This document shows, one piece after another, positions 1,843 through 55,818 of a stretch of DNA of 55,818 nt. Location of the stretch: positions 1-55,818 of the IMG/VR virus record IMGVR_UViG_3300028822_000225. The stretch is one strand, 5' to 3'. The notes under the pieces were generated by a model. The model did not search any database, had not been told where the DNA came from, and was given only the letters and a program-made list of their open reading frames with translations. The stretch's first letter is position 1. Each line of letters starts with the position of its first letter. Origin of the DNA: a virus. Its lineage: Duplodnaviria > Caudoviricetes. The translations under genes and the position numbers were made by a program.

Positions 1843-1852
1843 TACTCAAAAA

Positions 1853-3336: not shown

Positions 3337-3337
3337 A

Positions 3338-4908: not shown

Positions 4909-4926
4909 GAACTAATATTCAGGGGA

Positions 4927-5008
4927 GTGTGCAGGAAGTAAAAACCTTGAAAAATCTTTCTAAGAAAGTTTCATTTATCGTTGGTGTATTGTTTCCTTCC
5001 TCGCACAC
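4927..5008. repeat. Bulged stem-loop element, copy A
   Basis: GTGTGCAGGAAG (4927-4938) pairs with CTTCCT-C-GCACAC (4996-5008) around a 57-nt loop. The arms are identical to copy B. Confidence 0.85.
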
Positions 5009-5019
5009 ATTGATTTAAA

Positions 5020-5145
5020 ATGAAAGATAAAAAAAGAAAAGAATTACTTGAATGGAAATATCATAAAGCATTACAACTTAAACAATATGATAGAGCAAAG
5101 GTGTATTTAAAATTATTAAAAGAATTGGAGGAAAAAGAAGAATGA
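5020..5145 (+). CDS. Small 41-aa protein ending in the ELEEKEE junction motif
   Basis: Translated by hand: MKDKKRKELLEWKYHKALQLKQYDRAKVYLKLLKELEEKEE. The stop overlaps the next ATG. Confidence 0.55.
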   Translation: MKDKKRKELLEWKYHKALQLKQYDRAKVYLKLLKELEEKEE

Positions 5146-5405: not shown

Positions 5406-6739
5406 AAACACTTGTAGTTGCTAAATATAATGAGGATACCAAATGGACAAGAGATTTTGAAAATGTAGAGATAATTCATAAGGGAGTGGATTTACCTAAT
5501 TTTGGAAGAGAACAACATACTTTCCTTTGGTATATTGTGAATAATTATGAGGAACTTAATGGATATTATTTCTTTGTTCAAGGAAATCCTTTTGACCATT
5601 GTGAGGATTTAAAGGAAGTTTATGAAACTCGTTTAGAAAAGAAATGGACACCTTTAGGGAAGAAACTGGGAAGTAAAAAAGGGGAACGTATTTGTGAATT
5701 GGATGGGAGACCACATCATGGAACAGGAAATTTAAAAATTAAAGAATTCTTATCAGATATTGGGATAAATTATAATCGTAATTTGATTAAATTCTATGCT
5801 GGAGGGCAATATTCTATTCATTCTAGTGAGATAAAAAAGAAACCGAAAGAATATTATGAAAAAGTTCTTAATTTATTTGATAAATATGGAGAAAAGGCAG
5901 GATATATCTTAGAAAGAGTTATGCAATTTGTATTTAATTGGAAGGAATTTGAACATTATGTTGTTACTAGATTTGCTTACCCAACCAATTATCCTTATTT
6001 TGAAGAGAGAAAAAGGATTTTCAAATTATTTTTAATTGAATGTTTAAAAGAACAGACTAATAAAAACTTTAAATTTATAATAATTGGAAACGATAAAACA
6101 CATGAATTAGAAGAAGAACTAAAAGGAATTAATTATCAAATCTTACATGAGGGCTTGGGATTTGTTAAAGAAAAACCTTTAGAAGTTTTCGACCTTCAAT
6201 GTAATTATCTTATAACTACAAGATTTGATGATGATGATTTAGTTCACCCAGAATTTGTGGGAAAGATTCAAGAATTATTCAAAAAATTAGATTATCTTTC
6301 TCCCTATGTAATAGATTTTAAGGGTTTTAGATATGATATGAGAAATCGTAAGGCCTATAAAGTTACTGAGTATGACCCTAGAACTGGTTGGGGAACTTCT
6401 CCTTTCTTAACTTTTGTTGAAAAAGCAGATATAGAAAACATAAAGACTTGTGTCTACCTTAAACATGGGCATATGGGACATAATTTCCATTTACACTATG
6501 TGGACCAAGAATATTGGATTCAGGTTGCACACCATCTTAACATTTCAAACAACAAATTGCCTCGCTTATTTAAATATCCTGAAGTTAAGGAAAGACTCTA
6601 TTTTTCTAAATATATAAAATTCTTACTTGAAAATTTTAATTTAGTTGATTATAGTGATGTTGTTATCACTAATGAATACTTGAAAAAGATTAAAAAAGAG
6701 AAGGATTATTTAGATAAAGAAATTACTAAAGAAAAATGA
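5402..6739 (+). CDS. DUF3431-like domain fused to a putative GT-A (rhamnosyltransferase-like) domain
   Basis: N-terminal LVVAKYNED..W, PNFGRE.HTFL.YIV.NY and FFVQGNPFDH. C-terminal HYVVTRF, CLKEQTNKNF and TTRFDDDD. Confidence 0.75.
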   Translation: MKTLVVAKYNEDTKWTRDFENVEIIHKGVDLPNFGREQHTFLWYIVNNYEELNGYYFFVQGNPFDHCEDLKEVYETRLEKKWTPLGKKLGSKKGERICELDGRPHHGTGNLKIKEFLSDIGINYNRNLIKFYAGGQYSIHSSEIKKKPKEYYEKVLNLFDKYGEKAGYILERVMQFVFNWKEFEHYVVTRFAYPTNYPYFEERKRIFKLFLIECLKEQTNKNFKFIIIGNDKTHELEEELKGINYQILHEGLGFVKEKPLEVFDLQCNYLITTRFDDDDLVHPEFVGKIQELFKKLDYLSPYVIDFKGFRYDMRNRKAYKVTEYDPRTGWGTSPFLTFVEKADIENIKTCVYLKHGHMGHNFHLHYVDQEYWIQVAHHLNISNNKLPRLFKYPEVKERLYFSKYIKFLLENFNLVDYSDVVITNEYLKKIKKEKDYLDKEITKEK

Positions 6740-7608
6740 TAAGTGTAATTACTTGTGTTTGGAACAGAGAGAATGAAAGGATACAAAACTGTATAGATTA
6801 TTTAAAAGACCAAGTAGACGAGATAATAGTTGTCGATTATGGAAGTGATGAACCTATAAAAATTAATAATGCTAAAATAATTAGGTATGATAAAAATCCT
6901 GTATTTAATAAATCTCATGCACTAAATTTAGGAATTAAGGCTGCCAAAAATAAATTTATTATGTGTGTAGATTGTGATATGATTATTCCCGAAGATGTGG
7001 TTTCTGATATAAAAAACACTTTGATAGACGATGCAACTTTTATAATAAATACAAATGTTAATAGGATAAATAAGGGGGACATTGGTAATTGGGATAAGGC
7101 TTTCCCTTGGCATAAGGAAAATATTGGTATGAATCGTGCGAGGTCCTCTGCAAATGGGGGGATGCAAGTATTTTCAAAAGAATGGGTAGAAGAAATTCAT
7201 GGATATGATGAACAATTCATACTATTGGGATGTATGGATAATGATATGGTGAATAGGGCTGTTTTCAGTGAAATGAGAATAATTGATGTTAATATGCCTA
7301 TATATCATCAAGAACATGAAAAGAAGAAGGGAGATGTTTTTGGTAAAGAAAATGAGGAGAAAGTTAACTTTATCACAAACGAGAAACTGCATTACTACAT
7401 AGAAAAAACAAATAATATGATTGTAAAAAATCCAGGTCCTTGGGGAGAAGATGAACCAAATCAAGATAAATTCATAAGTTTATGGACTAATTGGGATGAA
7501 ACATTTCCTGCATTACAAGACAAACGTGAAAAAATGCTTCAAGAAATTAAAAATTTTATAATTGAAAAAAAAATACCTATAAAAAAAATGGATGTGAAAT
7601 GGAAATAA
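6736..7608 (+). CDS. Glycosyltransferase family 2
   Basis: ISVI, EIIVVDYGSD, FNKSHALNLGI, DCD (DxD motif), GYDEQF..GCMDND and HQEH. Confidence 0.9.
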   Translation: MISVITCVWNRENERIQNCIDYLKDQVDEIIVVDYGSDEPIKINNAKIIRYDKNPVFNKSHALNLGIKAAKNKFIMCVDCDMIIPEDVVSDIKNTLIDDATFIINTNVNRINKGDIGNWDKAFPWHKENIGMNRARSSANGGMQVFSKEWVEEIHGYDEQFILLGCMDNDMVNRAVFSEMRIIDVNMPIYHQEHEKKKGDVFGKENEEKVNFITNEKLHYYIEKTNNMIVKNPGPWGEDEPNQDKFISLWTNWDETFPALQDKREKMLQEIKNFIIEKKIPIKKMDVKWK

Positions 7609-7862
7609 AAAAGAGAAAATCAACCTATACTCTGGGGGAAAAGGTAAAATTTTACATAGCTCTTAAATTGAATAAAAACCCTGAATATTGTTGGATGAAT
7701 TTGGTTTTATGGGTATTAGGTTATAGAAGTTTTTGGAGTTTGTTTTTTAAAAATCACCCTGAAAATGATTATAAAGACCAATCTTGCAGAGAAGATAATA
7801 TTTATTGTCCTTATGCTTATTGTGGTAAATGTGAAGAAACAGGGAGGTTTTATAATAAATGA
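7599..7862 (+). CDS. Hypothetical protein with C-terminal cysteines
   Basis: Overlaps both neighbours. Contains C...C..YCGKC. Confidence 0.6.
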   Translation: MEIKKRKSTYTLGEKVKFYIALKLNKNPEYCWMNLVLWVLGYRSFWSLFFKNHPENDYKDQSCREDNIYCPYAYCGKCEETGRFYNK

Positions 7863-8518
7863 AAAAGAAAATCCTTATAGCAATCATAAGTAATAGAAGT
7901 GCTTGGTCTAAACATTTTTCTATGAGTTTGGTTAATTTAATCCATGAAACAAGAATGAAACACAACATTGAATGGATTAATGTTTCTAGTTGTGATGTTA
8001 ATTATATGAGAAATCGTGCATGTCTTATTGCTCAGGCTAAAGGGAATGAGGCTCGGGAATGGAATTATGATTATATTGTTATGTTAGATGATGACCACAT
8101 TTATCCTGAAGATTTCATTAATAAATTTGTGGATTATGATTTACCTGTAGTCACCGGATGCACTAGTCAAAGAACCCCCCCATACAAACAGACTCAATAT
8201 AAACAAATAAAAGGGATTGGGATGAAAGATGAAGAAAATATTGTTAATCCTAAAGAAACTGAGGGGTTAGTTCAAATAGATGCTAGTGGGCCTGTAGGGA
8301 TGTGTATTAAGACAGAAGTCCTTGAAAAAATGAAATATCCTTATTTCGAACAGATTAATCTAAATAATAGTCCAAGTATCCGTGGTGGAGATATTCAATT
8401 TTGTCAACAATTAAAAGAATTAGAAATACTTCTTTATTTGGATAGTTCAGTATCATTTCCCCATTGTGCGGGAGATACATTATATGCAGATAGAGGGCAA
8501 GTTCATTATCACCCATAA
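7859..8518 (+). CDS. GT-A fold glycosyltransferase-like protein
   Basis: MRN..C, YIVMLDDD, VVTG, G.GM.IK.EV, YPYF and GGDIQFC motifs. Confidence 0.8.
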   Translation: MKKKILIAIISNRSAWSKHFSMSLVNLIHETRMKHNIEWINVSSCDVNYMRNRACLIAQAKGNEAREWNYDYIVMLDDDHIYPEDFINKFVDYDLPVVTGCTSQRTPPYKQTQYKQIKGIGMKDEENIVNPKETEGLVQIDASGPVGMCIKTEVLEKMKYPYFEQINLNNSPSIRGGDIQFCQQLKELEILLYLDSSVSFPHCAGDTLYADRGQVHYHP

Positions 8519-9703: not shown

Positions 9704-9979
9704 ATGAAAACAATTAAAGATGTTAGTAGGATAGTACTAAACCATGATTTATATGATGCAGTAGATAATTATGAAATTAAAAGAATTGTTGTAGAAAATA
9801 TGAAACAAATCCTAAAGAATAACCCTGAAGTTGATATTGAACAAATAAAAGTAGTGGGTATTACAGAATCAGGTAAACTTCAATTTAAGGTTCCAGAGAC
9901 ATTTAAAAATAGGCAAGTAATTATTCTATTAGCTTATTTGAAATGGTTTTTTGATTTAAATGATGAGGATTTGAAATGA
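9704..9979 (+). CDS. Divergent member of the KTLKD paralogue family
   Basis: MKTIKDV...LKWFFDLNDEDLK. Confidence 0.65.
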   Translation: MKTIKDVSRIVLNHDLYDAVDNYEIKRIVVENMKQILKNNPEVDIEQIKVVGITESGKLQFKVPETFKNRQVIILLAYLKWFFDLNDEDLK

Positions 9980-12569: not shown

Positions 12570-12601
12570 TTATTTTTTATTTTTTTATTTTTTTATTTCT
12601 T
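12570..12601 (+). terminator. Oligo-T tract, probable archaeal-type terminator
   Basis: T-runs interrupted by single A, directly after the 12560 stop. Confidence 0.45.
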
Positions 12602-12672
12602 GGGCAGATGGTGAAATGTTATCACGCTTCTTTTGCAAGGAAGAGTTCGGGGTTCAATTCCCCGTCAGTCCA
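12602..12672 (+). tRNA. tRNA-Ala(UGC)
   Basis: Cloverleaf with acceptor GGGCAGA/TCAGTCC (G3:U70, one A-A mismatch), anticodon arm CTTCT-TTTGCAA-GGAAG and T-arm CGGGG-TTCAATT-CCCCG. No encoded CCA. Confidence 0.9.
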
Positions 12673-12675
12673 TAA

Positions 12676-12746
12676 GCCTCAATAGTTTAGTGGAAAAATA
12701 CCTAACTGTCTATCAGGAGTCCTGAGTTCGATTCTCAGTTGAGGCG
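12676..12746 (+). tRNA. tRNA-Asp(GUC)
   Basis: Acceptor GCCTCAA/TTGAGGC with discriminator G, anticodon loop CTGTCTA and T-arm CTGAG-TTCGATT-CTCAG. No encoded CCA. Confidence 0.85.
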
Positions 12747-24272: not shown

Positions 24273-24332
24273 CCGAGTTTATTTTGCTCTCCTGAGCTAA
24301 TAATTTATAGTTTTATAACTTTATAAAAGTTG

Positions 24333-24926
24333 TTATACTTTATTGCATCGCACTTCATGGCATTGAGTAGCTCCCTGAAGTCTATGTGTTATAACATCTT
24401 TTATTTCATAATTATTCTCATCAAATTTAATCTTATTTGCTACAGATAGTCCCGTTACTGTAGACTTGGCGAAAAAGGTTTTATCTCCTGGACTATATCT
24501 TCCTTCACGATTAAATTCTTCATCTCCATTAATATCATTATGAACTACTGTAATTGTTGAACTACTTGTTGTTTGAGACATATCTCCCCATGCAGAATAA
24601 GTAGTTTCACTAGCAGTAATCAATATTACATCTTCACCATATCTATCAATTTGTCTGTCTACTATAGTAACACTTACACTCTCAGCAGTTGTAGTATAAA
24701 TAATTGAGATATTCATATCATCATAAATCTTCCGTGTAAAAGTAATTGTGCTGCTAGAATCATTATGGGTTACATTATAGTCGCTTGTACTTACTAAAAG
24801 ACCACTTACATAAACTTCAAAATTCTCGCTTTCAGTGAGTTCAGTATTATTCAAAGTTAGTACTCTATTCGTCTCTCCTGAATTTCCTGTACATTCACTT
24901 CCGGTTCTATCTTCTTGTGTAGCCAT
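24333..24926 (-). CDS. Head closure (stopper) protein with an extra N-terminal domain
   Basis: C-terminal YGEDV.L...DKTFF...KIKFD...YEIKDV. N-terminal VYVSG...DY.V...ITF beta domain. Confidence 0.65.
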   Translation of the reverse strand: MATQEDRTGSECTGNSGETNRVLTLNNTELTESENFEVYVSGLLVSTSDYNVTHNDSSSTITFTRKIYDDMNISIIYTTTAESVSVTIVDRQIDRYGEDVILITASETTYSAWGDMSQTTSSSTITVVHNDINGDEEFNREGRYSPGDKTFFAKSTVTGLSVANKIKFDENNYEIKDVITHRLQGATQCHEVRCNKV

Positions 24927-34473: not shown

Positions 34474-35543
34474 CTTAATTTCGCTTGACTCAACAGCATT
34501 TCGGCGAACTCTGCATCTCCTTTTGAATAACCTTTTGGAATCTTCACTGTGTTATCTACGACAGACATAGATTTCACATCTTTCTTTTTAGAAAGATTTT
34601 CAGAAGACTCTTCTTCCTTCTTCTCTTCTTTTGGTTCCTCTTGAGATTCAGAAAGTTTAGCTATTTTTTCTCCAAGAGACTTGAGTTCTTTTATAACGAG
34701 ATTTAATTTAGAACTTAATTCTTCTGATTTGTCTTCAGATTCTTTCCCTGATTCTTCTGTTGTTTCTTCCTTAGATTCCTCTTCAGAATTTTCAACAGTT
34801 TCTTCTTTGGGTTCCTCTTTAGACTCTTCAGAAGGTTGTTCTATAACTTCATCTTTTTTCTCGTCTTCCATCTTCTCTGTTAAATCTTGACCCCCTTTCA
34901 TCTCTGTTGATTCTGATTCATCTTCCATATCCTCTTTTTTCTTTTTCTTCTTTTTTTCCCAATATTTTTTCTCATTTGTTTCTCCCCCAATTGATTCTCC
35001 TGAAACTCCTCCAGAACTTGTTACAGATAATTCCATTGGTTTTACTCTCATAGTTTTTTCTTCTTTTAATTTTTCAGATAGGTTGATATAAGCATTTTTA
35101 CATGCAGGGTCATAGACTACAGAAAAGTTAGCAAATTTTTTAATATTGAAATTTCCATCATCATCTTCTACACCAAGAACTCTGGCAGAAACACCTAATT
35201 TAGCACCACCTTTTACTAATTTCAATGCAAGGTCTTTATCCCAAATTTCCAAATCTCCCACAAGTTCCCCGCTGTCAGTCACCTCTAAATTAAGAACATT
35301 CCCTAACCAATTAGTTGCTCTTTCTTCGTGTTCATAAATAAGTGCATAATTTTTCTTATCGCTCCAATCTGTTAATTCAAAACCCTCTTTAATACTATTA
35401 GCAGTAAAGTTTAATCCATTCCATTTTCCTGGGGTTAATAATGTTTTTCCTTTTAGAATTACAGGTAATTTCAACTCGTTTTGTTCAACTTCATATTCTT
35501 GCTTTGCTAAAGTCATTTCTTGCATAAAAAAATTAAGTTTCAC
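34470..35543 (-). CDS. Prohead protease fused to an acidic scaffold
   Basis: PGKWNG, IYEH, GVS and SVV.DPAC protease motifs, then an E/K/S-rich C-terminal half. The start may be a downstream ATG. Confidence 0.8.
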   Translation of the reverse strand: MKLNFFMQEMTLAKQEYEVEQNELKLPVILKGKTLLTPGKWNGLNFTANSIKEGFELTDWSDKKNYALIYEHEERATNWLGNVLNLEVTDSGELVGDLEIWDKDLALKLVKGGAKLGVSARVLGVEDDDGNFNIKKFANFSVVYDPACKNAYINLSEKLKEEKTMRVKPMELSVTSSGGVSGESIGGETNEKKYWEKKKKKKKEDMEDESESTEMKGGQDLTEKMEDEKKDEVIEQPSEESKEEPKEETVENSEEESKEETTEESGKESEDKSEELSSKLNLVIKELKSLGEKIAKLSESQEEPKEEKKEEESSENLSKKKDVKSMSVVDNTVKIPKGYSKGDAEFAEMLLSQAKLR

Positions 35544-35598
35544 TCCTTTATAAAATTTGTTATAGTTTTATAACTTTATAATATTATAACAAATCCCC

Positions 35599-36963: not shown

Positions 36964-37241
36964 TATTTAAACCTTATGGACCTAATCCATTTAACTAATT
37001 TAGTTTCTAGAAGATATATTGTAAACCCGTATCCTACAAAAGAGTACCATGTGAAAGGATTTCTGAAAATAACAAAAATAGCTAAACTAGACATCCCTCC
37101 AAATAAAATAACTTGCCCAATTATGTTAAAAATAACTTTCCTATCTTGTTCATCTAATTTAAAAATTTTAATATTTTTTAAGAAATTAGTGGATTTTTTC
37201 CATTTTTTCTTTAATTTTTTCCAAATTTCATTAAATTTCAT
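36963..37241 (-). CDS. 2-TM membrane protein between terminase and portal
   Basis: Two hydrophobic helices. A TATA box lies about 22 nt upstream. Confidence 0.65.
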   Translation of the reverse strand: MKFNEIWKKLKKKWKKSTNFLKNIKIFKLDEQDRKVIFNIIGQVILFGGMSSLAIFVIFRNPFTWYSFVGYGFTIYLLETKLVKWIRSIRFK

Positions 37242-37280
37242 AAAAAATAATAGAATTATAACTTTATAAAAGTTGTTATA

Positions 37281-38747
37281 CTACCGAGACATTCCTATAG
37301 ATGTAGCGGTTCTAATATTAACTGCGTGTTTCACAGCCATAGCGAGAGTAATAAGTATATCATCATGTTGTGCGGTGGATAAAAATACCTGATTGTCACT
37401 TTCAGATTTCTTTCTCATAAACCCAATCGCTTGTTCTACCATAGTATCGGTAAGTTCTAATGCTTTTGCATCTCTCGGATGTCTTGGTATTCTAATTGAT
37501 TCGCTCTCAAAAACATTAGAAAGGGTTATAAGAAGTCCCTTTCTAGATTGATGGTCAAATTTCTGAAAAATTGTTGTACATCCGTTTGCTCTAAGTTGTC
37601 TAGCCACTTCGGTACCCACATTGTTTGGGTCTAATACTAATTTAACAGTTCTCCCATTCTGAAAAGTATTATACAATTCAAGGAGTCTATCTCTTTTAAA
37701 TGGAACAGGTTTCCCTTTCCAAATCTCTATATGTTTAATAGTTAAGATGTCATCTAATTTTTCTAATACAAGGAAACAGTCATAATCTGCTTTTGGCCCT
37801 TTACTAACAGCAAAGTCTCCGGCGATAAAATACTGTGCTTCAGGTCTAACTGAGTAATCAAATTTAAGGGATTCATCAAATCCTTTTGCTATAATATTAA
37901 CTGAGAATATAGCATCCTCCCCCTCGATTATATTACATTGATAAGTTAATTCGAATGCAGCATCCCCCATTGCTTGTCTTTCTCTAAGCAAATATTCTAC
38001 ACTAAAACGTTCGGGCCAATTAGAATAAACCTTGTTCTCGTCATAAGGAGGCTCCGCCCTAGTACCATCTTCATTAATAAGTGCAGGTGTTAGAAGGAAG
38101 GCATATCCTTGTGGTTTCCTAGCCTTAAGTTGACCAATAAGAAGGGTGGTTCCTTTTGTGGTACTTATTAAACAAATCTTACCTCCTGGGATTATACGGC
38201 TAGTCACTTCAGAAAAATATAAATCTGGGTTTTCGTATGTATCTGCTTCATCACAAATAATTAGGTCTGCACGATATGAACGAATATTAATATTATAAGG
38301 AACATTTGTTACAAGAGAATTGTCTACTAACTTAATTTGGGTTTTATTCCAAACAGTCTCCTTTTCTGGTTTAAATAATTTTTTTGTTAATTCATTTAGG
38401 TGAATATAGTGTTTGATTCTTTCAAGAAGATTTGTTTCCGCCTGTTTCATTGCTTTAGAAACCAATAGAACTTTTGCTCCAGGATGATTAAGAATATAAT
38501 ATAATGTGTAAGCTACTCCCACAATTTCTGTCTTTGAAAAACCTGCTGCTGATTCTATTACACTCGCTTTATTATTTTGTATAGTATAGAACCAATCCAT
38601 CTGGTATTTGTGTATCCCTCCAAATTCATTAATTTCTAGAAGCCTTTCACAAAAGAATTTGAAGTCTACCTTACACCTTAAAAGAAATTGAACATAAGAC
38701 ATATCTCCCAAAATATCTTCTTCTGTTTTATATAATCCTTTTTCCAT
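37281..38747 (-). CDS. terL: Terminase large subunit
   Basis: Variant Walker A (AAGFSKT), Walker B (LIICDEA), IST coupling motif, RNase H-like GDFA and HDD...LAMA. Confidence 0.92.
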   Translation of the reverse strand: MEKGLYKTEEDILGDMSYVQFLLRCKVDFKFFCERLLEINEFGGIHKYQMDWFYTIQNNKASVIESAAGFSKTEIVGVAYTLYYILNHPGAKVLLVSKAMKQAETNLLERIKHYIHLNELTKKLFKPEKETVWNKTQIKLVDNSLVTNVPYNINIRSYRADLIICDEADTYENPDLYFSEVTSRIIPGGKICLISTTKGTTLLIGQLKARKPQGYAFLLTPALINEDGTRAEPPYDENKVYSNWPERFSVEYLLRERQAMGDAAFELTYQCNIIEGEDAIFSVNIIAKGFDESLKFDYSVRPEAQYFIAGDFAVSKGPKADYDCFLVLEKLDDILTIKHIEIWKGKPVPFKRDRLLELYNTFQNGRTVKLVLDPNNVGTEVARQLRANGCTTIFQKFDHQSRKGLLITLSNVFESESIRIPRHPRDAKALELTDTMVEQAIGFMRKKSESDNQVFLSTAQHDDILITLAMAVKHAVNIRTATSIGMSR

Positions 38748-39852: not shown

Positions 39853-39961
39853 AATTGTTTGGGTGATTATCTGAGTAATCTTTAGTACAACCCTTACAGT
39901 AATTTAGAAATCTATTTAGGCAAGTCTTTTCCCTATCCATAAAAATTAAAGGGTTTTCCAT
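39740..39961 (-). CDS. Small Cys-rich protein
   Basis: C...YCKGC...HPNNYDCP.Y. Confidence 0.55.
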   Translation of the reverse strand: MENPLIFMDREKTCLNRFLNYCKGCTKDYSDNHPNNYDCPYYKEFHYDMFEVYDESKLEELGREAKGFPQKKD

Positions 39962-39974
39962 TTTATAAATGTTA

Positions 39975-40481
39975 TTATACTTCTTTATATGAAACTTTTA
40001 TTTTTCCTTTTTCCTTAAATTTAGATGCTATTAAGAATTTGGAGCAGTAATTATTGTTTAAGTAAAATAGGGCTTTTTCTTTTTCTTCTTTATCTAAGTA
40101 TCCATTCGTTTTACATTCTACGAATATTATTTCATAATGCTTATATACTAATTGTTCCCCATATTCTCCTTCTTCAAATTTACTTTTTAGTACCTTTTTT
40201 TGTAATATATAAGCGATAAAATCTGGAAACCCTGTTTGCATCATTCTAAACCTTCCTGGTTTAGCTGGAACGAGTTTTCCTATTTTCACTTCTTTACCTG
40301 TTATATCATAAACTTGATGTTCATATCCTGTTAGGTCTTTTTCTTTCTGTTTTATAAATTCCACATTATTACCCCAACGGCTAACTATCCAACCTTTTAA
40401 CTCAAGGTTTTCTCTAACTCTTCTTTCAAAGTCTGCTCCAGAGCGTTTATTTTTTTTTCCTTGTTTAACTTTATCTACCAT
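39975..40481 (-). CDS. Archaeal-type Holliday junction resolvase (Hjc-like)
   Basis: G..FER.V...LE..GW.V.R, GFPDFIA and FVECK motifs. Confidence 0.8.
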   Translation of the reverse strand: MVDKVKQGKKNKRSGADFERRVRENLELKGWIVSRWGNNVEFIKQKEKDLTGYEHQVYDITGKEVKIGKLVPAKPGRFRMMQTGFPDFIAYILQKKVLKSKFEEGEYGEQLVYKHYEIIFVECKTNGYLDKEEKEKALFYLNNNYCSKFLIASKFKEKGKIKVSYKEV

Positions 40482-41244: not shown

Positions 41245-41298
41245 TTATAAAACTATAAGGTTATAACATTATAACTTTATAATATTATAAGTTTATAA
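41245..41298. repeat. Seven TTATAA hexamers at 8-bp period
   Basis: TTATAA-aa-CTATAA-gg-TTATAA-ca-TTATAA-ct-TTATAA-ta-TTATAA-gt-TTATAA. Confidence 0.9.
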
Positions 41299-41913: not shown

Positions 41914-42502
41914 GTTTATGGTATTTGTTTATAAAATGGTTAATGTTATTTTAAAAAATATTGATAAAATTAAAAGTTATAATGTTATAGGATTATATTA
42001 TTATAATGTTATAATTTTATTTAAACTCGTATGTAGTTACAAATATTTAAATAGTAGTGGTGCTTTAATATAATATGAAACAAGAACAGATAATAAATAA
42101 AATGATTAATTCAGAAATAGAGTTTGATCTTAAAATGAACTATGTGCTTATAGTTTATTATAGGAATGGTTTAAGGTTTAAATATGTTAATAAGGAGTGT
42201 TTAAAATGATGATTGAAAAAAGGTTTAAATCTTATAATGATTATTTAAATTTTTTGTATTCTTTTAAAAGGATAGAGGTATTAAGTAGATTTGATATAAA
42301 TAAAAAAGAGTATGTAGTCCTTTATGAGGAGGGTTTAAAATGAGTTATAAAATAATAAATGATACAGAAGCATTAATGACTAAAATAGATGATTTAATAA
42401 TTGATATTGAAGATTTGAGATATAATAAAAACTATTCTGAAGTTGCTTGTAATGTTAAAGGGTTTATATTTGATATTTTAAGAGAAATGAAAGGGGGTTT
42501 AA

Positions 42503-48463: not shown

Positions 48464-48916
48464 TTACCAATTAGGATTATCTAAAATAGCTTTAACCATC
48501 TGTGCAAATTGTTGTATGTTCTGCTGAGTTAAAGGCATCTTCTCTTCAAACGACTCATTATGTGCTTTCAACCACTCTATTGCTCTTGCTACACAACTTT
48601 GTTTGATGATTGATTCTTGTCTTTCATCTTTAAAGGCGTTTGCTGGTTGTGTTTGAACAGCAGGTGTTTGAGAATTTTGCGAAGAAGGAACCTCCTTATT
48701 TCCACTGGAAAGAACTTTTACTTTAGTAGCTTTGTAAGATTTCCCTTCTCCCTCGTGTTCAGTTATATTAACTGAACAAGGAACCTTATCCTTAAGGAAA
48801 TTACTTACTGCCTCTGTTGTTCCAATAAAGTTTCCTTCATCTGTTAAAAGATAATGTCCGTATTGAGATTTTCCTGTCTTTTTTATATTATGTGCTTTGT
48901 CTTCCATTTCAATCAC
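48464..48916 (-). CDS. Putative ssDNA-binding or recombination protein
   Basis: OB-like N-terminus, Q/P linker and RQESIIKQSC..A C-terminal helix seen in phage SSB-like proteins. Confidence 0.5.
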   Translation of the reverse strand: MIEMEDKAHNIKKTGKSQYGHYLLTDEGNFIGTTEAVSNFLKDKVPCSVNITEHEGEGKSYKATKVKVLSSGNKEVPSSQNSQTPAVQTQPANAFKDERQESIIKQSCVARAIEWLKAHNESFEEKMPLTQQNIQQFAQMVKAILDNPNW

Positions 48917-49124
48917 CCCCTTTCATTTTTACACCAAAGTCTTCTTTTAAACCATTTTTTGTATCTTTTGGTGATTGTTTAAGTTTTTTAGTTGATTTAG
49001 TTATTGATATTCCTTTTCTGAATCTTTTCGAATTATCTTCTTTTAACTCATCAAAATGTTTGCTACAAACATTATGGGTTCTAATAATTCCTACTACTTC
49101 TTTTTTACATAATTCACATTTCAT
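48909..49124 (-). CDS. Zinc-finger protein
   Basis: CELC...CSKH. Confidence 0.6.
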   Translation of the reverse strand: MKCELCKKEVVGIIRTHNVCSKHFDELKEDNSKRFRKGISITKSTKKLKQSPKDTKNGLKEDFGVKMKGGD

Positions 49125-49404
49125 TTTTATTATTTCTCTTTTCTCTGCATTTATAACATCTTCGAGGGTAGTTAATCTTTTTTACCTTTGGGTTATTTTC
49201 TCCATCAGGATAAGTAACAATTGGGTTAACCTTTATCCCACAATCATAACATCTTTTTAAATTATTTCGTTTAAGCCTGTTTCTTCTACTTCTTATTTTA
49301 GGTAAACAATCACTACAATAACCACTGACATTATTTAATCCCAAACTTTTTCCACATTCTAAACAGGTCATTCTTCTCCACTTATGCTGTGTTCTTTTAA
49401 CCAT
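49114..49404 (-). CDS. Double zinc-ribbon protein
   Basis: Four CxxC pairs. A TATA box lies about 23 nt upstream. Confidence 0.7.
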   Translation of the reverse strand: MVKRTQHKWRRMTCLECGKSLGLNNVSGYCSDCLPKIRSRRNRLKRNNLKRCYDCGIKVNPIVTYPDGENNPKVKKINYPRRCYKCREKRNNKNEM

Positions 49405-49646
49405 AATAAATTATAGTTAGAGTTCCTTATAAATCTTTGTAACCACTACTTAGTTATATTGGGAGGTGGTTGGCCTTATTCAGACCAACCCAAAAATGAA
49501 ACTCCGAACGAAAAACCAGCCTCATCGTAATGTCTTAGTTCCCATAAGTTGATTCATTTAAAAGAATATTCTTCCCTTTTTATAAATTATTGTAGTCACT
49601 AAATTATAGTTAGAAATGTTTATAAATAACCATACTATTTATTTAT

Positions 49647-49778
49647 ATGGTAATGAAGATAGTTTGTCTTGATTGTGGGGAAGAATTCTTAGAGGATAAT
49701 GTCAAAACTCTAAAAATTAAATTCGAAGCACACAAAAAAGAACACGCTAAAAGAAACCAGGAGATGAAAAGAAAATGA
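49647..49778 (+). CDS. 43-aa C2H2 zinc-finger protein not in the ORF track
   Basis: MVMKIVCLDCGEEF...FEAHKKEH. TTTATAAA at 49619-49626 upstream. The stop overlaps the ATG at 49775. Confidence 0.7.
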   Translation: MVMKIVCLDCGEEFLEDNVKTLKIKFEAHKKEHAKRNQEMKRK

Positions 49779-50131
49779 GTAAACTTAAAACCCTTAAAGA
49801 TTTGAAAAGAATAGAAGACGACCATCAGATCCTGAATATTGATGAAATAGAAGAATATTCTGGATATGGGAGAACTAAAGAAGATGTAATAAAAGAAGGA
49901 GATAAAGATAGTTATGCTTCATTTTATGATTTAAAACAAGAAGCGATTAGGTGGATAAAGGTATTAGAAGAAGATGCAAAAGAAATCGCAAATAATAATG
50001 TAATTCCCTACCACCAGGGAGAACAGCAGATAAGATGTTATGAATTCCAAAAGAAGATGGAATTAGTTAGTTGGATTAAAAACTTCTTTAATATCACAAA
50101 AGAAGATTTAGAAGGAGAAAAAGAAGAATGA
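49775..50131 (+). CDS. KTLKD paralogue family member
   Basis: MSKLKTLKDL...LKQEAIRWIK...WIKNFFNITKEDLE. Confidence 0.75.
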   Translation: MSKLKTLKDLKRIEDDHQILNIDEIEEYSGYGRTKEDVIKEGDKDSYASFYDLKQEAIRWIKVLEEDAKEIANNNVIPYHQGEQQIRCYEFQKKMELVSWIKNFFNITKEDLEGEKEE

Positions 50132-50697
50132 GTGAAGAAAGCATTGTAAGTCAAATGAAGAAAGAATATGAGGGAGAAATAAAAACATTTGAAGAATGGA
50201 CTAAAATTCTTGCAGAAAAATTAATTGGAATAAAAATAATAACTTCAAATAAAGTTAAGGCGATAAGAACTGAGCGAGAGAGAAATAAAAGATATTTGAG
50301 CGAGAGAGAAATAAAAGATATTAAGTTTAGATTTAAAAAAATGAAAGATAAAATCAAAGAAAAGTTAGAGAAAGAGATTGAAGAAATTAAACCAATAAAA
50401 ATGATTATGGTTTGTGATGAAGTTGGTTGTGCTTCAAATAGAGAGGGATTTTGTCAAAGAGCAATAAAATGTGATGGAAAAAAAGGAGATATTGATTACA
50501 AGAGGGTGATTAAAACAAAACAATTAGAACAACACGAAGAAACAAAAAAAGCAGAACGAGAGAGGATTAGGGAGATAGCAAGAAGGCTTAATGATAAGTT
50601 CAGAGCAGATAATACTCCTCAAACATTAAGTGGTGATGAATTTAATGATGTTTGGGAAGAAGAATTAATAAAAAAATTGGGAGAAAAAGAAGAATGA
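50128..50697 (+). CDS. Apparent fusion of two cassettes; the second belongs to the MKDKIKE...EETKKAERER family
   Basis: Internal MKDKIKEKLEK at 50341 and a 26-bp duplication at 50271-50322. Confidence 0.65.
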   Translation: MSEESIVSQMKKEYEGEIKTFEEWTKILAEKLIGIKIITSNKVKAIRTERERNKRYLSEREIKDIKFRFKKMKDKIKEKLEKEIEEIKPIKMIMVCDEVGCASNREGFCQRAIKCDGKKGDIDYKRVIKTKQLEQHEETKKAERERIREIARRLNDKFRADNTPQTLSGDEFNDVWEEELIKKLGEKEE

Positions 50698-50918
50698 AAA
50701 GTAATTATAAAACTAAAGGATTTGTTTTAATCTATTCTGAAATTGGAGATTATGACCATTTAGAATATTGGTTTAACACTTATGATGAAGCAGAAAAAGA
50801 GTTTAAAGAACTTGAAAAGGAGTATAATGATAAAGGGTTTTTTGGTTATATTGCAGAAATTAAATTATGTAGAAGTTTAGATGAATTTGGTGAATTAAGA
50901 GAGAGTGAGTTTGAATGA
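50694..50918 (+). CDS. Hypothetical protein
   Basis: ATG lies within a junction motif (track start 50652). Confidence 0.6.
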   Translation: MKSNYKTKGFVLIYSEIGDYDHLEYWFNTYDEAEKEFKELEKEYNDKGFFGYIAEIKLCRSLDEFGELRESEFE

Positions 50919-51018
50919 AAACAAAAGTATATGAAAAAATTGATGAAGAAGGGAAAAAGATAATATACTACGACCCTTTTAGACAATTTATAGAAGAAGA
51001 ATTGGAGGAAAAAGAAGA

Positions 51019-51594
51019 ATGAGATATAGAGAGAAAAAAATAATGAATTTTATCCCTAAAGATGTTGAAAGTGTTTTGGATGTTGGTAGTGCAGGAAATA
51101 TTTTTAATAAGAACTATAAAACAACTACACTTGATGCTGTGTTCGATGCAGATATAAAACAAGACCTTAATTTAAATCAAAAACTTCCTTTCAAAGATAA
51201 TTCTTTTGATTTGGTTGTGATGAATCAAATATTAGAACATTTGGTCTATCCTCAAGAACTAATAGATGAAGCAAAAAGAGTTTCAAAGAAATATATTTTA
51301 ATTGGTTTGCCTAATGAATATTTAATAAAATTCAGATTATATCATTTTTTGGGTTTTCCTATGAAAGATACTTTTATAGGTACAGGTTATAATCCCTTTG
51401 GACATAAACCTAGTTTTACAATTCCAACAATTAAAAAATTTATTGATTTATTTTTTTCCGACACAAAATTAGTCAATTCTTTTTATATCCCTTTTTTATC
51501 AGATAGGTTGGGAATATTTTCAGAGTATTTAACTAAATTAAGACCCAATTTATTTGCTAATGAGGTTTATTATTTGTTAGGGGTTGTTGAATGA
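51019..51594 (+). CDS. Class I SAM-dependent methyltransferase (Methyltransf_11-like)
   Basis: VLDVGSAG, LPFKDNSFDLV and LEHL..P...EAKRV motifs. Confidence 0.88.
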   Translation: MRYREKKIMNFIPKDVESVLDVGSAGNIFNKNYKTTTLDAVFDADIKQDLNLNQKLPFKDNSFDLVVMNQILEHLVYPQELIDEAKRVSKKYILIGLPNEYLIKFRLYHFLGFPMKDTFIGTGYNPFGHKPSFTIPTIKKFIDLFFSDTKLVNSFYIPFLSDRLGIFSEYLTKLRPNLFANEVYYLLGVVE

Positions 51595-51665
51595 AAGCTA
51601 AAAAAACTAGAGGGAAAAGAAGAATGAAACAGATAAAGAGATAAAAAAACAGAATAAAAAACAAA

Positions 51666-51929
51666 ATGAATGAAGCAATAATAAACCATATAATAAGCAT
51701 TATAACAGTAACATTATCAATTATCTTATTACTTACATCTATACTTGTTTTAGGTATACAAGACAATAAAAAAACAGATTTAGAAAATAAATTAGAGAAA
51801 AAACAAGAGATTATTAATGAACTTTGTAAGACATTTCAAGAATATAAACCTGACGAAGATTTTACTAGTAGAGCAATCTCTGAAAAAGAAGTAAAATATC
51901 TTTATTTATGTAATCAAAATGAAAGATAA
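51666..51929 (+). CDS. N-terminal TM protein
   Basis: Hydrophobic N-terminus followed by a coiled coil. Confidence 0.6.
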   Translation: MNEAIINHIISIITVTLSIILLLTSILVLGIQDNKKTDLENKLEKKQEIINELCKTFQEYKPDEDFTSRAISEKEVKYLYLCNQNER

Positions 51930-52194
51930 AATCAAAGAAAAGTTAGAGAAAGGTTTAGATTTACTTAAACATGTAGAAGATTATGATTTTGACGTCTTTA
52001 GTGAGAATGCTGAACTTTTGGAATATACACACTTTCAAGGAAGATTAAAACAACACGAGGAAACAAAAAAAGCAGAAAGAGAGAGATTTTTAAGATTGAT
52101 AGAACGACACGAGTTTGAACACGGGGATTTTCAAGGACTAATTATAAGTTCTGTAGAATTATTAAAAAAAGAATTGGAGGAAAAAGAAGAATGA
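51919..52194 (+). CDS. MKDKIKE...EETKKAERER paralogue
   Basis: Shares DNA blocks with the ORF segments at 50341 and 53547. Confidence 0.7.
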   Translation: MKDKIKEKLEKGLDLLKHVEDYDFDVFSENAELLEYTHFQGRLKQHEETKKAERERFLRLIERHEFEHGDFQGLIISSVELLKKELEEKEE

Positions 52195-52216
52195 AAAGAG
52201 ATAATACTCAAAGGGA

Positions 52217-52299
52217 GTGTGCAGGAAGTAAATACTTTGAGAGCAATAATTCTAATACCAGAGCTTGTTTTATTGTTTTTGTGCTACTTCCTCGCACAC
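52217..52299. repeat. Bulged stem-loop element, copy B
   Basis: GTGTGCAGGAAG(TA) pairs with (TA)CTTCCT-C-GCACAC. 58 nt lie between the core arms. Confidence 0.85.
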
Positions 52300-52339
52300 A
52301 ATAATTTAAAATGAAAACACTTAAAGAGATAAAGGAAAA

Positions 52340-52648
52340 ATGAAAGAACTTAAAACATTAAAAGATATTGAATTTTTTGATGACCATGATAACCATATAG
52401 CAAAGGAATATAATGACAGTGTTAAGAATGATTTGAAAGCCGAAGCTGTGAAGTGGATTTATAAATTTGATGAAGACCCTTATTATATGGAGCAGGAAAA
52501 TGGAGAGATAATGAAATGGATTATGTATTTTTTTAATATAACAAATGAAGAATTGGAGGAAAAAGAAGATGATTGTGATAAAGGAAAAGAAAAAGGAGAT
52601 GACATAAGAATCTGTGGATATAAAATATTGGAGGAAAAAGAAGAATGA
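52340..52648 (+). CDS. KTLKD paralogue with read-through extension
   Basis: MKELKTLKDI...LKAEAVKWI...FFNITNEELEEKE. Confidence 0.75.
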   Translation: MKELKTLKDIEFFDDHDNHIAKEYNDSVKNDLKAEAVKWIYKFDEDPYYMEQENGEIMKWIMYFFNITNEELEEKEDDCDKGKEKGDDIRICGYKILEEKEE

Positions 52649-53541
52649 AAGACAAAAAGTATAAATTAACAAATGAGAAAAAAGAAGTTTTTGGGAGAAC
52701 ATTATATAGAATAGAGGCAATTAGAAATTTTGGAATTATAGAAAAAGGAGAATTGGGGGGATTTATTGAAAAAGAAGAAAATTTATCTCATTATAGAAAT
52801 GCCTGGGTGTATGGAGATGCTAAGGTGTATGGGTATGCTGAGGTGTATGGAGATGCTGAGGTGTGTGGAGATGCTGAGGTGTATGGGTATGCTGAGGTGT
52901 ATGGAGATGCTGAGGTGTATGGAGATGCTGAGGTGTGTGGAGATGCTAGGGTGTGTGGAGATGCTAAGGTGTGTGGAGATGCTAGGGTGTATGGAGATGC
53001 CTGGGTGTATGAAAAGGCTAGGGTGTATGAAAAGGCTAAGGTGTGTGGAGATGCTAGGGTGTGTGGAGATGCTAAGGTGTGTGGAGATGCTAGGGTGTAT
53101 GGAGATGCTGAGTTGTTTGGAAATGCAACAATAAAAGAACAGCAAAAAATAACAACAGGATTTATTACAAAACCTTTAGAAGGAAAATATAGTTTTATGG
53201 CACAAATAGGTTTTTATCCTACTGATGAATTTATTTTATATAAAAGAGTGAATAAAGTCAGCGAGGGAAAATATTCAAGTGGTTATGATAAAAATTTTAT
53301 ATATAAAGATGGAAAAATAAAAAATTTTATATATAAAGATGGAAAAATAGTTGAAGTTAAAAATCCAGATATGTCCAACAAATCTTGTTCAAAAGGAATA
53401 CATCTATCTAATCCACTATATTGGGAACAAGGAGATACTATAATAGCCTGTCAAGTAAAATGGAAAGATGTTATAACAATACAAGAGGGAAAGGTCAGAG
53501 TAAAAAAATGTTATGTAATTGGAGAAGTAAATGATTTTTAA
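52645..53541 (+). CDS. Hexapeptide-repeat (left-handed beta-helix-like) phage protein
   Basis: LYRIEAIRNFG...GELGGFIEKEENLS N-terminus, about 17 V(Y/C)GDAx repeats (18-bp unit, about 52801-53112) and a CSKGIH...GKVRV C-terminal domain. Confidence 0.85.
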   Translation: MKDKKYKLTNEKKEVFGRTLYRIEAIRNFGIIEKGELGGFIEKEENLSHYRNAWVYGDAKVYGYAEVYGDAEVCGDAEVYGYAEVYGDAEVYGDAEVCGDARVCGDAKVCGDARVYGDAWVYEKARVYEKAKVCGDARVCGDAKVCGDARVYGDAELFGNATIKEQQKITTGFITKPLEGKYSFMAQIGFYPTDEFILYKRVNKVSEGKYSSGYDKNFIYKDGKIKNFIYKDGKIVEVKNPDMSNKSCSKGIHLSNPLYWEQGDTIIACQVKWKDVITIQEGKVRVKKCYVIGEVNDF

Positions 53542-53849
53542 TGAAGATGAAAGATAAAATAAAAGAACAAATAAGAATGATGCAAGAAAAAAACATTAAT
53601 AGAGTTTATATTCCTAATGGAGCTTTCAGAAGATTAGAAGTTATGATAGATAAAGCAATAGAAGAAACAAAAAAAGCAGAACGAGAGAGGATTTTGGATT
53701 TGGTTAATGAATTGGCTTCTTGGACTTGTGAATGTAATTGTATCACTTTTGATAATGGAAAATGTAGAAATTGTGGGAAATCTCCAAAATATGGAGAATT
53801 AGATGTTGAAGAATTTAAAAGAAAATTGGAGGAAAAAGAAAATGGTTAA
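53541..53849 (+). CDS. MKDKIKE...EETKKAERER paralogue with zinc ribbon
   Basis: Shared blocks plus CEC...CRNC. Confidence 0.7.
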   Translation: MKMKDKIKEQIRMMQEKNINRVYIPNGAFRRLEVMIDKAIEETKKAERERILDLVNELASWTCECNCITFDNGKCRNCGKSPKYGELDVEEFKRKLEEKENG

Positions 53850-54078
53850 CATAGAAATAATGATTGAAAACTGGTGTGAAGAAAAAAGGATTGATATTGA
53901 TAAAATTCCAGATGAAATACTTAGACAAACAGAAAATAGGATAGATGATGATTTTGATAATTTTTTAAGAGAAAAAGGTAAAAAAATAGTTGATGAGTGG
54001 TGTTGGATGTTTATAGAACAAGAGTTGGAAGATAATCCTGAATGGAAAATAAAAGAATTGGAGGAAAAAGGAGAATGA
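53842..54078 (+). CDS. Acidic hypothetical protein
   Basis: Starts and ends in junction motifs (track start 53803). Confidence 0.6.
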   Translation: MVNIEIMIENWCEEKRIDIDKIPDEILRQTENRIDDDFDNFLREKGKKIVDEWCWMFIEQELEDNPEWKIKELEEKGE

Positions 54079-54257
54079 AAAGTAGCAATATAATTCCACA
54101 GGAAATGAAGGGGTATTATACCAACGATAAAACAGATGTTTTTCCAGACCATTATTTCCAATGGAAAGTTCGTTTAACCTATATTCCCAGCAGGAAGAAC
54201 AAATTTAAATTTTCAAGCAGGAAGAACAAATTTAAATTTTCACTCCCAGCGTTATAA
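54075..54257 (+). CDS. Small hypothetical protein with a 27-bp duplication
   Basis: ATG lies in a junction motif. SRKNKFKFS occurs twice. Confidence 0.45.
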   Translation: MKSSNIIPQEMKGYYTNDKTDVFPDHYFQWKVRLTYIPSRKNKFKFSSRKNKFKFSLPAL

Positions 54258-54258
54258 A

Positions 54259-54627
54259 ATGGAAGAAAATCAAAAAATAGCACAAATAAGAAAGTTGAAG
54301 AGAATGAATAAAAAATTGTTAAACATAGTTCCACTTATTGAAAAAAAAGCTGGACAAAAATTAAAATTACTCCACAACAATTCTTTTTATGATAGGTGTG
54401 AAGAATATGTTGATGGAAAAGCATTAGGAGTTTCCAACTTTTATTACGAATGGTTTAAAGAAGGAACTATGACTTCTGTTGAATTTATGTATGGTGTTGA
54501 GTTAATGAATAACAATTTTTATTTCGTCTTTGAGAAGTGTAATATAATTGTTCAAGATGAAGTTAAGAAGTTTCTCAACTTTCAAGACTTTTTTGATTTT
54601 CTTAAAAAGAGGGGGAAACTATCGTGA
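54259..54627 (+). CDS. Hypothetical protein
   Basis: 122-aa ORF. Confidence 0.65.
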   Translation: MEENQKIAQIRKLKRMNKKLLNIVPLIEKKAGQKLKLLHNNSFYDRCEEYVDGKALGVSNFYYEWFKEGTMTSVEFMYGVELMNNNFYFVFEKCNIIVQDEVKKFLNFQDFFDFLKKRGKLS

Positions 54628-54636
54628 AAATTAAAA

Positions 54637-54747
54637 CTTCTGGGAATATCAATTTAGGAGTTCCGAAAATCAAAGATTTTCTCCATCCTAATTTCTGCTT
54701 CGCAGAAACTATCCTAAACAACAATATTAAACGAAATAAACTTGCCC
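54637..54747. other. Branched hairpin site upstream of the methyltransferase
   Basis: TTTAGGA/TCCTAAA stem enclosing GAAAATC-AAA-GATTTTC and TTTCTGC-TTC-GCAGAAA, followed by AATATTAAAC at 54723-54732. Confidence 0.75.
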
Positions 54748-54764
54748 CCTCGCAGAGATGAAAA

Positions 54765-55724
54765 ATGAGATACTTCAGTATATTTACAGGAATCGGTGGA
54801 TTTGAATATGGAATACAACAAGCATTACCAAACGCAGAATGTGTCGGATACTCAGAGATTGACAAATACGCAATCCAAACTTACGAAAGACACTTCAAAC
54901 ACAAAAACTATGGAGACGCAACAAAAATTAAGCCAGAAGAATTACCAGACTTTGATATGCTCTGTGGAGGATTTCCTTGTCAAGCATTCTCAATCGCTGG
55001 AAAACGGAGAGGTTTCAAAGATACCAGAGGCACGATGTTTTTTGAGATTGCAAGAATACTTGAAGTTAAAAGACCTAAGATTGTATTCCTCGAAAATGTC
55101 AAAGGGTTACTCAATCACCAAAAAGGGGAAACTTTCAGAGTCATCATTCAAACGCTTTCAGAATTGGGGTATGATGTTCAATGGATGGTTCTTAACAGCG
55201 AATTTTTTGGAGTTCCCCAGCAACGGGAAAGAGTCTATATTATTGGACTACTTAGAGGAAAATCCATCAGAGAAATCATTTCTTTCAAAACAAGAAATAA
55301 AAAAGATAGTGAGTTGTTATCAACCAAGAGAGTTCAAAACTGGAAAAAGACAAGGTGCAATTACATTAAATACGAAGATTCCGAAAAAAGCGTGGACTCT
55401 TACATCAACGAGAATAATTGGGAGGACTTCATTTGTGATTCCAAGATGAGAACTTTAACACCAATAGAATATGAAAGATTGCAGGGATTCCCTGATGGAT
55501 GGACAGAAGGAGTATCCGACACACAGAGATACAAACAATGTGGTAATGCTGTAACAACTAAAGTAATAAAATCCATCATGGAGAAACTAATCGTGGGCAA
55601 GTTTACTCAAGGGGCTACGCCCTCGTTTAATAAGGATTTAGAGGTTTCGGCTACGCCTACACCCAAATCGCCTTCGGCGACTTCTCCAAACCCTAATATT
55701 AAACAAACTTCAGAAGAAAAATGA
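54765..55724 (+). CDS. dcm: DNA (cytosine-5) methyltransferase
   Basis: FTGIGG (motif I), GGFPCQ (IV), LENV (VI), Q.RERV (VIII), R.LTP.E.ERLQGFP (IX) and YKQCGNAV (X). Confidence 0.95.
   Translation: MRYFSIFTGIGGFEYGIQQALPNAECVGYSEIDKYAIQTYERHFKHKNYGDATKIKPEELPDFDMLCGGFPCQAFSIAGKRRGFKDTRGTMFFEIARILEVKRPKIVFLENVKGLLNHQKGETFRVIIQTLSELGYDVQWMVLNSEFFGVPQQRERVYIIGLLRGKSIREIISFKTRNKKDSELLSTKRVQNWKKTRCNYIKYEDSEKSVDSYINENNWEDFICDSKMRTLTPIEYERLQGFPDGWTEGVSDTQRYKQCGNAVTTKVIKSIMEKLIVGKFTQGATPSFNKDLEVSATPTPKSPSATSPNPNIKQTSEEK
54796..55449 (+). CDS. Nested +1-frame ORF inside the methyltransferase gene
   Basis: 217 stop-free codons in an AT-rich gene, containing WGMMFNG and LLDYLEENPSEKSFLS. Confidence 0.55.
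   Translation: MDLNMEYNKHYQTQNVSDTQRLTNTQSKLTKDTSNTKTMETQQKLSQKNYQTLICSVEDFLVKHSQSLENGEVSKIPEARCFLRLQEYLKLKDLRLYSSKMSKGYSITKKGKLSESSFKRFQNWGMMFNGWFLTANFLEFPSNGKESILLDYLEENPSEKSFLSKQEIKKIVSCYQPREFKTGKRQGAITLNTKIPKKAWTLTSTRIIGRTSFVIPR
55595..55716. other. Branched hairpin site downstream of the methyltransferase catalytic region
   Basis: Hairpins GGGC-TAC-GCCC, GGC-TAC-GCC and TCGCC-TTC-GGCGA, with the last two inside a GTTTAATA/TATTAAAC stem. AATATTAAAC at 55695-55704. Confidence 0.75.
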
Positions 55725-55818
55725 ATAAAGAAAAAACAAAAAAACTTTATTTAAGAGAACTAAAGATACCCAGAAAATTTACTTATGATGTTTCTTTAGA
55801 TATAATTGAAAAAGATTA
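55675..55818. repeat. Terminal direct repeat, copy 2
   Basis: Identical to 1..144. Confidence 0.97.

Follow-up and report, generated by a model that had tools for sequence, protein, structure and literature searches.

The window analysed here is the whole 55,818-nt viral record IMGVR_UViG_3300028822_000225 (Duplodnaviria; Caudoviricetes), in which a block of roughly 28 nt recurs at the junctions between small genes. Bases 1–144 are identical to bases 55675–55818, and this 144-nt terminal repeat means that the record is a complete genome of ~55.7 kb. The G+C content of the window is ~30%. The minus strand encodes a major head protein, a portal, a large terminase, and baseplate/tail proteins, indicating a tailed virus, whereas co-directional open reading frames (ORFs) occupy the plus strand from 49647 through the circular join to 12560. 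This plus-strand run includes two methyltransferases, a beta-solenoid protein, sulfotransferases, a radical-SAM/SPASM enzyme, a UDP-galactopyranose mutase, and glycosyltransferases. An earlier note, made from the letters of this DNA alone, had described ten copies of a 24-nt gene-junction motif in an array that continues across the circular join; the terminal repeat and the shared direction of the ORFs bear out this continuity.

The 24-mer GAATTGGAGGAAAAAGAAGAATGA occurs exactly at 5122, 50999, and 52171, always on the plus strand. Allowing up to three mismatches added copies at 50674 (3), 52625 (2), and 54055 (1), giving 6 matches in total, whereas each of 100 dinucleotide-preserving shuffles gave 0 matches at the same threshold. 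The motif is thus real against the composition-matched null that the earlier note had proposed as a check. A scan at up to seven mismatches added the remaining four copies, at 51604 (4), 52550 (4), 53823 (5), and 50108 (7), against a background of 5 other matches on the plus strand and 7 on the minus strand. The 50108 copy, in which the last 18 nt match at 17 of 18 positions, was accepted because it is placed at an ATGA junction, not because of its score. With these, the ten copies described earlier (three exact and seven variants) were all recovered, and the positions 50675, 51607, 52627, and 53824 given at that time correspond to 50674, 51604, 52625, and 53823. A column count over the ten copies showed sharp block edges at about −6 and +24, and the flanks outside the block were at background level, even among paralogs. 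The block is composed of a GGAGG-type Shine–Dalgarno (SD) core, a 10-nt A-rich spacer, and an ATGA stop/start overlap. The ATGA ending is present in eight of the ten copies, the other two being 53823, with an 8-nt overlap, and 52550, which has no stop. A purine-rich SD core (GGAGG, GGGAG, AGGAG, or GAGGG) lies 8–10 nt before the ATG in 10/10 copies. All copies are restricted to one transcription block, covering ~4.3 kb plus one distant copy (Table 1).

Table 1. Copies of the junction block, associated gene families and element, and promoter-like sites in the window.
Feature	Position	Strand	Context
Motif, exact	5122..5145	+	Junction between a 41-aa family-B mini-gene (5020-5145) and a family-A gene (5142-5405)
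Motif variant, 7 mismatches, AGGAG core, ATGA	50108..50131	+	Junction between a family-A gene (49775-50131) and the gene 50128-50697
Motif variant, 3 mismatches, GGGAG core, peptide KLGEKEE	50674..50697	+	Junction between a family-B gene (50128-50697) and ORF x1 (50694-50918)
Motif, exact	50999..51022	+	Junction between the 35-aa ORF x2 (50915-51022) and a methyltransferase gene (51019-51594)
Motif variant, 4 mismatches	51604..51627	+	In frame, 10 codons past the methyltransferase stop (KLKKLEGKEE, then stop); followed only by a 6-codon ORF
Motif, exact	52171..52194	+	End of a family-B gene (51919-52194); non-coding hairpin element X directly 3'
Motif copy, 20/24	52550..52573	+	Inside ORF 52340-52648; stop lost, GAAGAATGA to GAAGATGAT
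Motif variant, 2 mismatches	52625..52648	+	Junction with a YdcK-type beta-solenoid gene (52645-53541)
Motif variant, 5 mismatches, GGAGG and spacer kept, overlap ATGGTTAA	53823..53846	+	Junction between a family-B gene (53541-53849) and ORF x4 (53839-54078)
Motif variant, 1 mismatch, peptide ELEEKGE	54055..54078	+	Junction between x4 and x5 (54075-54257)
Decayed copy, 16/24, TGA to TGG	54022..54045	+	Inside x4, 11 codons before the live 54055 copy; counted by eye
Family A, predicted helical	49775-50131, 52340-52648, 5142-5405, 9704-9979	+	BLASTP
Family B	50128-50697 (70-aa N-terminal extension), 51919-52194, 53541-53849, 5020-5145 (41 aa)	+	BLASTP
Element X, ~125 nt, non-coding	52194-52316 and 4903-5025	+	Two copies, 74-80% identity
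TTTATAA[AG] sites	9354, 49619 (+); 38776, 49433 (-)	+ and -	Genes 9383, 49647, 49404 (-), and terminase
TTTATAAAT box, candidate TATA-type promoter with leaderless start (putative)	49619..49649	+	28 nt 5' of the ATG of 49647-49778 (first plus-strand ORF, head of the array)

Real genes lie downstream of several copies. The methyltransferase gene at 51019 has Pfam support, and a second in-frame ATG at codon 9 makes its exact start ambiguous. The N-terminus of the beta-solenoid protein at 52645 aligns with the homologue N-termini in the 40 loci listed, and family-A and family-B paralogs stand behind other copies. Downstream of copies 51604 and 52171 there is only a mini-ORF or a non-coding element. 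At 52550, the family-A gene that begins at 52340 no longer has its stop, and its reading frame extends a further 25 codons as far as the 52625 copy. The decayed copy inside x4 occupies the same place as the exact, active copy of the x4-like ORF x2, and this decay to 16/24 shows an apparent erosion of the block once it lies away from a junction. Further possible decayed copies occur at 49755 (14/24) and 51023 (17/24). Three sites (51604, 52550, and 54022) look like leftover 3' ends or gene remnants, and we read the 51604 copy as the probable leftover 3' end of a family-B gene. Within the beta-solenoid gene, positions 52724–53162 consist of ~17–24 tandem 18-nt units with the hexapeptide YGDAxV.

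In terms of gene families, six of the ten copies terminate members of two paralog families, with the block at the end of 4/4 family-B members and 2/4 family-A members. Pairs of paralogs were detected by BLASTP with E values of 6e-8, 2e-6, and 4.5e-4 in family A and of 5.6e-6, 4.4e-4, and 0.007 in family B, the members of which share the blocks MKDKIKEKLEK and HEETKKAERER as well as the motif. Family A matched only unnamed viral clusters in the Atlas look-up, and a protein search with family B returned itself and one 34%-identical protein, nothing more. ORFs x2 and x4 showed a weak likeness (BLASTP, 48% over 25 residues, E 0.12). The earlier statement that unrelated genes end identically is therefore accurate between families but overstated for the array as a whole, because the six copies close only two paralog families and x2 and x4 are themselves weakly alike.

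Element X is closed by a perfectly conserved stem (GTGTGCAGGAAG ... CTTCCTCGCACAC), and its interior varies. The indels there are not multiples of three and the element is therefore considered non-coding; the 37-aa ORFs across it are probably not genes. The folding z score was −4.5 for 52212–52302 and −1.0 for 4920–5006, and the element had no match in Rfam. In both copies, its left edge adjoins ATGA. The distant motif copy at 5122 sits in a duplicated segment containing element X, a B gene, the motif, and an A gene, and the order of these modules is X, B, motif, A at 4903–5405, as opposed to B, motif, X, A at 51919–52648.

The copies differ from one another in a way that distinguishes the RNA from the peptide. 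Among codons 2–7 of the ten copies, there were 7 non-synonymous differences and only 1 synonymous difference, and the Glu-to-Gly changes found in 4 copies shift the G-run yet retain it. At codons 4–7, the Glu and Lys codons comprise 36 A-ending and 0 G-ending codons, compared with ~76% A-ending codons in the genome (0.76^36 = 5e-5, a value that assumes independent copies, which they are not). These patterns, together with the SD core in every copy, point to the RNA signal as the target of selection, and not to the ELEEKEE peptide. It might instead be supposed that the acidic ELEEKEE tail functions as a C-terminal tag for interaction, sorting, or turnover, with the DNA identity as a by-product. 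The peptide is indeed common to several proteins, and the codons at positions 4–7 are the commonest ones. However, the Glu-to-Gly changes are non-conservative and leave the SD core intact, and TTG and GAG, the minority codons that form the core (15% of Leu and 23% of Glu codons, respectively), are used in 7/10 copies, a choice that fits the SD sequence and not codon bias. The tail is also missing from a family-B homologue elsewhere and from two family-A members, and we regard a function of the peptide itself as very improbable. The mean predicted unpaired probability between −16 and +3 was 0.79 for 8 motif starts, compared with 0.54 for 21 other plus-strand starts and 0.49 for 120 random positions. 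Stop/start overlaps are widespread in this virus, with 26 junctions having a 4-nt overlap in the genome, and SD-like cores precede many other genes.

The block is best explained as a reused translational-coupling junction that spread with duplicated gene ends and has been retained by selection on the RNA signal, a reading to which, on the evidence of the sequence, we assign a probability of about 0.62. It would serve a long series of small early-type genes, all in one direction, as the site of translation initiation and stop/start overlap, where the ribosome ending one gene would be handed to the next or a new ribosome would load at the block. The number of copies, about ten, would mainly reflect the fact that the block forms the 3' end of duplicated small paralogs, namely, family B, two members of family A, and x2/x4. 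Later deletion or fusion of these genes would have spared their last block-bearing codons, because the next gene needs them. ATGA overlaps with an upstream SD sequence are an established basis of coupled translation in archaea and bacteria (Huber et al., 2019, PMC6728339). We infer that coupling actually occurs and that selection, not recent copying, keeps the copies alike. The expression half of the earlier proposal, which described a portable expression and recombination joint, is thereby upheld by the SD core in every copy, the ATGA in eight, and two anchored downstream genes.

Several observations weigh against this explanation. Other junctions in this genome have spacers of ~3–14 nt and differing sequences; SD function does not need a fixed 10-nt spacer, so the near-identity of the spacer requires common descent or an extra constraint. 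Moreover, two of the four family-A members in the window and the family-A homologue in a complete relative (G001, 51.6 kb) end earlier, without the block, and a family-B homologue from another contig ends in ...WIEKEIGK, likewise without it. The block was therefore gained by some genes, and simple vertical inheritance is insufficient. Finally, patches of 100% nucleotide identity occur between otherwise diverged B paralogs (e.g., the first 37 nt of the 55-nt N-terminal block, repeat family D13), suggesting recent exchange and hence that recombination is active in the region.

The fact that the entire initiation region is conserved, spacer included, beyond the needs of an SD sequence would also be consistent with a shared operator, in which the block binds one translational repressor or RNA-binding factor and the early genes are switched off together. 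The RegA protein of T4 is the model for such a shared translational repressor of early genes. The confinement of the copies to one transcription block fits this idea, but no candidate regulator was identified among the proteins scanned, the multiplicity of the block is explained by paralogy, and the same 21-mer precedes ORFs in unrelated genomes, from which a factor of this kind would be absent. Exact scans for this 21-mer found 0 loci in the viral contig collection, 9 loci in metagenomes, and 5 in genomes. Of the metagenome loci, one (L006) belongs to the virus analysed here; each of the remaining 8 is unrelated and has one copy, and in 6 of them the ATG of the 21-mer opens an ORF of 35 aa or more. 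The 5 genome loci, each single-copy and belonging to Bacillota/Firmicutes going by the record title, include 4 with an ORF of 87 aa or more that begins at this ATG. Because the single copies elsewhere mostly lie directly before ORFs, the 21-mer is, judged by its positions, a generic strong ribosome-binding start in low-G+C organisms, and what is distinctive here is its multiplicity. A common operator is accordingly improbable in our estimation. For comparison, the most frequent 12-mer ending in ATGA has 7 occurrences in this genome, against 3 in G001.

To the coupling junction, a second role could be added, in which the 24–30 nt direct repeats serve as crossover points for the gain, loss, and reordering of translationally coupled genes. 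This corresponds to the recombination half of the earlier proposal and can be examined in the relatives of the virus. A terminase search of viral contigs identified 2 relatives, with 76% identity, whereas the methyltransferase, family B, and the 54259 ORF identified no viral-contig relatives. The complete relative G001 had 0 copies of the motif at up to three mismatches. It shares the structural genes and a few others with the window but has nearly none of the array genes, and the array is the most divergent part; G001 is too distant for breakpoints to be placed. G001 (L003–L005) has a junction word of its own, GAGTTAGAATGA, present 3 times, near 31231 and 30581, with two copies sharing 16 nt; it yields C-termini in ...ELE and is weaker than the block of the window. 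The metagenome contig L006 is another assembly of this virus, collinear with the window, with four copies at the same spacing and no substitutions. It differs by three tandem-repeat indels: it lacks 91 nt within 52724–53162, a 30-nt duplication at 53290, and a 27-nt duplication at 54189. These differences reflect either copy-number variation or assembly collapse, and the 30-nt and 27-nt tandem duplications are also missing from the contigs of sequencing run X1.

The beta-solenoid gene is widespread: its family has 556 relatives among viral contigs. Of these, 80 loci (696 kb) were kept, and they contained only 6 matches to the 19-nt core of the motif at up to three mismatches, none of which was at the start of a homologue. 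The junction at 52625 was therefore resident, not imported with the gene. Run X1, available as Logan contigs placed at 90% likeness, with joint sides of only 20–40 nt, provided a further comparison. The main contigs of this run keep the order of the window and pass straight through copies (e.g., 50539–51945 and 53811–54101). A few minor contigs depart from this: in one (depth 6.6, side 24), positions 52184 and 52652 are linked through 9 other letters; in a second (side 30), 50691 is linked to 52550; and loose contig ends lie at 50660, 50661, 52161, 52204, and 53840. These joints hint weakly at related sequences with other neighbours at the block, and they may belong to other viruses sharing the block or the family-B blocks. 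Runs X2 and X3 contained almost none of the window, and no conclusion is based on them.

Taken as a crossover point, the block would account for several features of the array: it ends at least three unrelated kinds of gene (A, B, and x2/x4); X, B, and A are arranged differently in the two duplicated segments, and the left edge of X meets ATGA in both; the B paralogs are mosaics of identical patches; a widespread gene stands exactly behind a copy at a resident junction; the X1 joints and loose ends fall at copies; and the array is the region most different from G001. On the other hand, no genome was found with gene gain or loss bounded by the block, G001 having no copies and L006, the same virus, being collinear, and no integrase or recombinase domain was found among the proteins scanned, in which the small ORFs were not all included. 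The main X1 contigs run through the copies, and the joints are short-sided. Furthermore, at four places two copies lie 24–75 nt apart with leftover codons between them. A clean crossover would leave no scar, and these paired copies bear the signature of untidy deletions. We therefore consider a recombination joint unlikely, and this half of the earlier proposal was not substantiated. A more specific version, in which the coding ~28-nt block doubles as a crossover site for the exchange of small genes between co-infecting relatives while each lineage homogenises its own junction sequence, is a slightly more tentative proposal still.

Comparison with known systems places the block nearest to ordinary coupled junctions. 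The block shares with SD-led ATGA coupling (Huber et al., 2019, PMC6728339) the 4-nt ATGA overlap, the SD sequence in the last codons of the upstream gene, and the tight packing of co-directional genes. However, ordinary ATGA/SD junctions differ from one another, as do ~18 other ATGA junctions of this genome, whereas here one ~28-nt block, including its spacer, is reused about ten times and fixes C-terminal peptides. The PeSL cassettes of T4-type phages (Arbiol et al., 2010, PMC2839356; Comeau et al., 2014, PMC4122927) are similar in combining a repeated short regulatory motif with a plastic region and small ORFan genes, and both they and the window block span the upstream stop, the SD sequence, and the downstream start. 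PeSLs are intergenic and contain a sigma-70-type promoter and a stem–loop terminator, and their breakpoints and mini-circles have been demonstrated. In contrast, the window block is coding and has neither promoter nor stem, and its only breakpoint hints are the short-sided X1 joints. No promoter hexamers were found in the block, and promoter-like sites in 48900–55818 numbered 24, compared with 31.4 expected. No terminator-like sites were found, the block being predicted to be mostly unpaired (0.79).

As for integrons, the proteins scanned, which did not include all small ORFs, contained no integrase domain, and the block has no inverted repeat. In mosaic lambdoid phages, the junctions of modules carry short conserved boundary or linker sequences. 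The proposed crossover role of the block matches the idea that such shared sequences at gene borders guide the exchange of neighbouring modules, but lambdoid boundaries are compared between genomes, whereas the block repeats within one genome and its closest relative lacks it. A literature search, which was not exhaustive, found no paper in which a coding SD/stop–start block serves repeatedly as a cassette joint.

Should the block be nothing more than a reused ribosome-binding junction, it would illustrate how an RNA signal can dictate protein C-termini, make unrelated proteins look alike, and outlast gene decay, a caution for annotation and for inference based on repeats. If the recombination role were true, gene shuffling in a viral plastic region would be organised by translation signals, not by promoters, and this in a group of viruses (marine and sediment, low G+C, probably archaeal) in which no comparable case is known. 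A crossover role would then make it, by analogy, a promoter-free equivalent of PeSLs at the level of translation, in which a gene landing behind the block would be expressed at once via coupling.

The virus probably infects an archaeon, perhaps one of low G+C, an inference based on two observations. First, the sequence TTTATAA[AG] occurs exactly 28–29 nt 5' of the ATG in four genes that are first in their units and have no SD sequence, and these sites look like archaeal TATA boxes with leaderless transcripts; scans showed no enrichment of bacterial-type (sigma-70) promoters or intrinsic terminators. Second, the sole match of the terminase in the phage collection was to a haloarchaeal tailed virus, with 23% identity.

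Other features of the window were also noted. A −1 or +1 frameshift at the sequence GGAGG-AAAAAG of the block was considered and dropped, because there are only five A's and the SD sequence lies 2 nt from the Lys codon, so that neither classical pattern fits. Positions 390–8518 contain a cluster of glycan-modifying genes, comprising two or three sulfotransferases, the radical-SAM/SPASM enzyme, the UDP-galactopyranose mutase, and rhamnosyl- and family-2 glycosyltransferases; the glycosyltransferases at 6736 and 7859 are kept in G001. Adjacent tRNA genes for Ala(TGC) and Asp(GTC) are located at 12601–12746, where the plus-strand gene block switches to the minus strand, and these two tRNAs were the only matches in the Rfam scan. 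In the minus-strand structural block, AT-rich intergenic repeats (TTATAACTTTATAA...GTTATACT; families D8, D9, and D17) are located at 24298–24339, 35525–35594, 37241–37282, 39940–39981, 41260–41298, and 41976–42027, and these may be late promoters or regulator sites.

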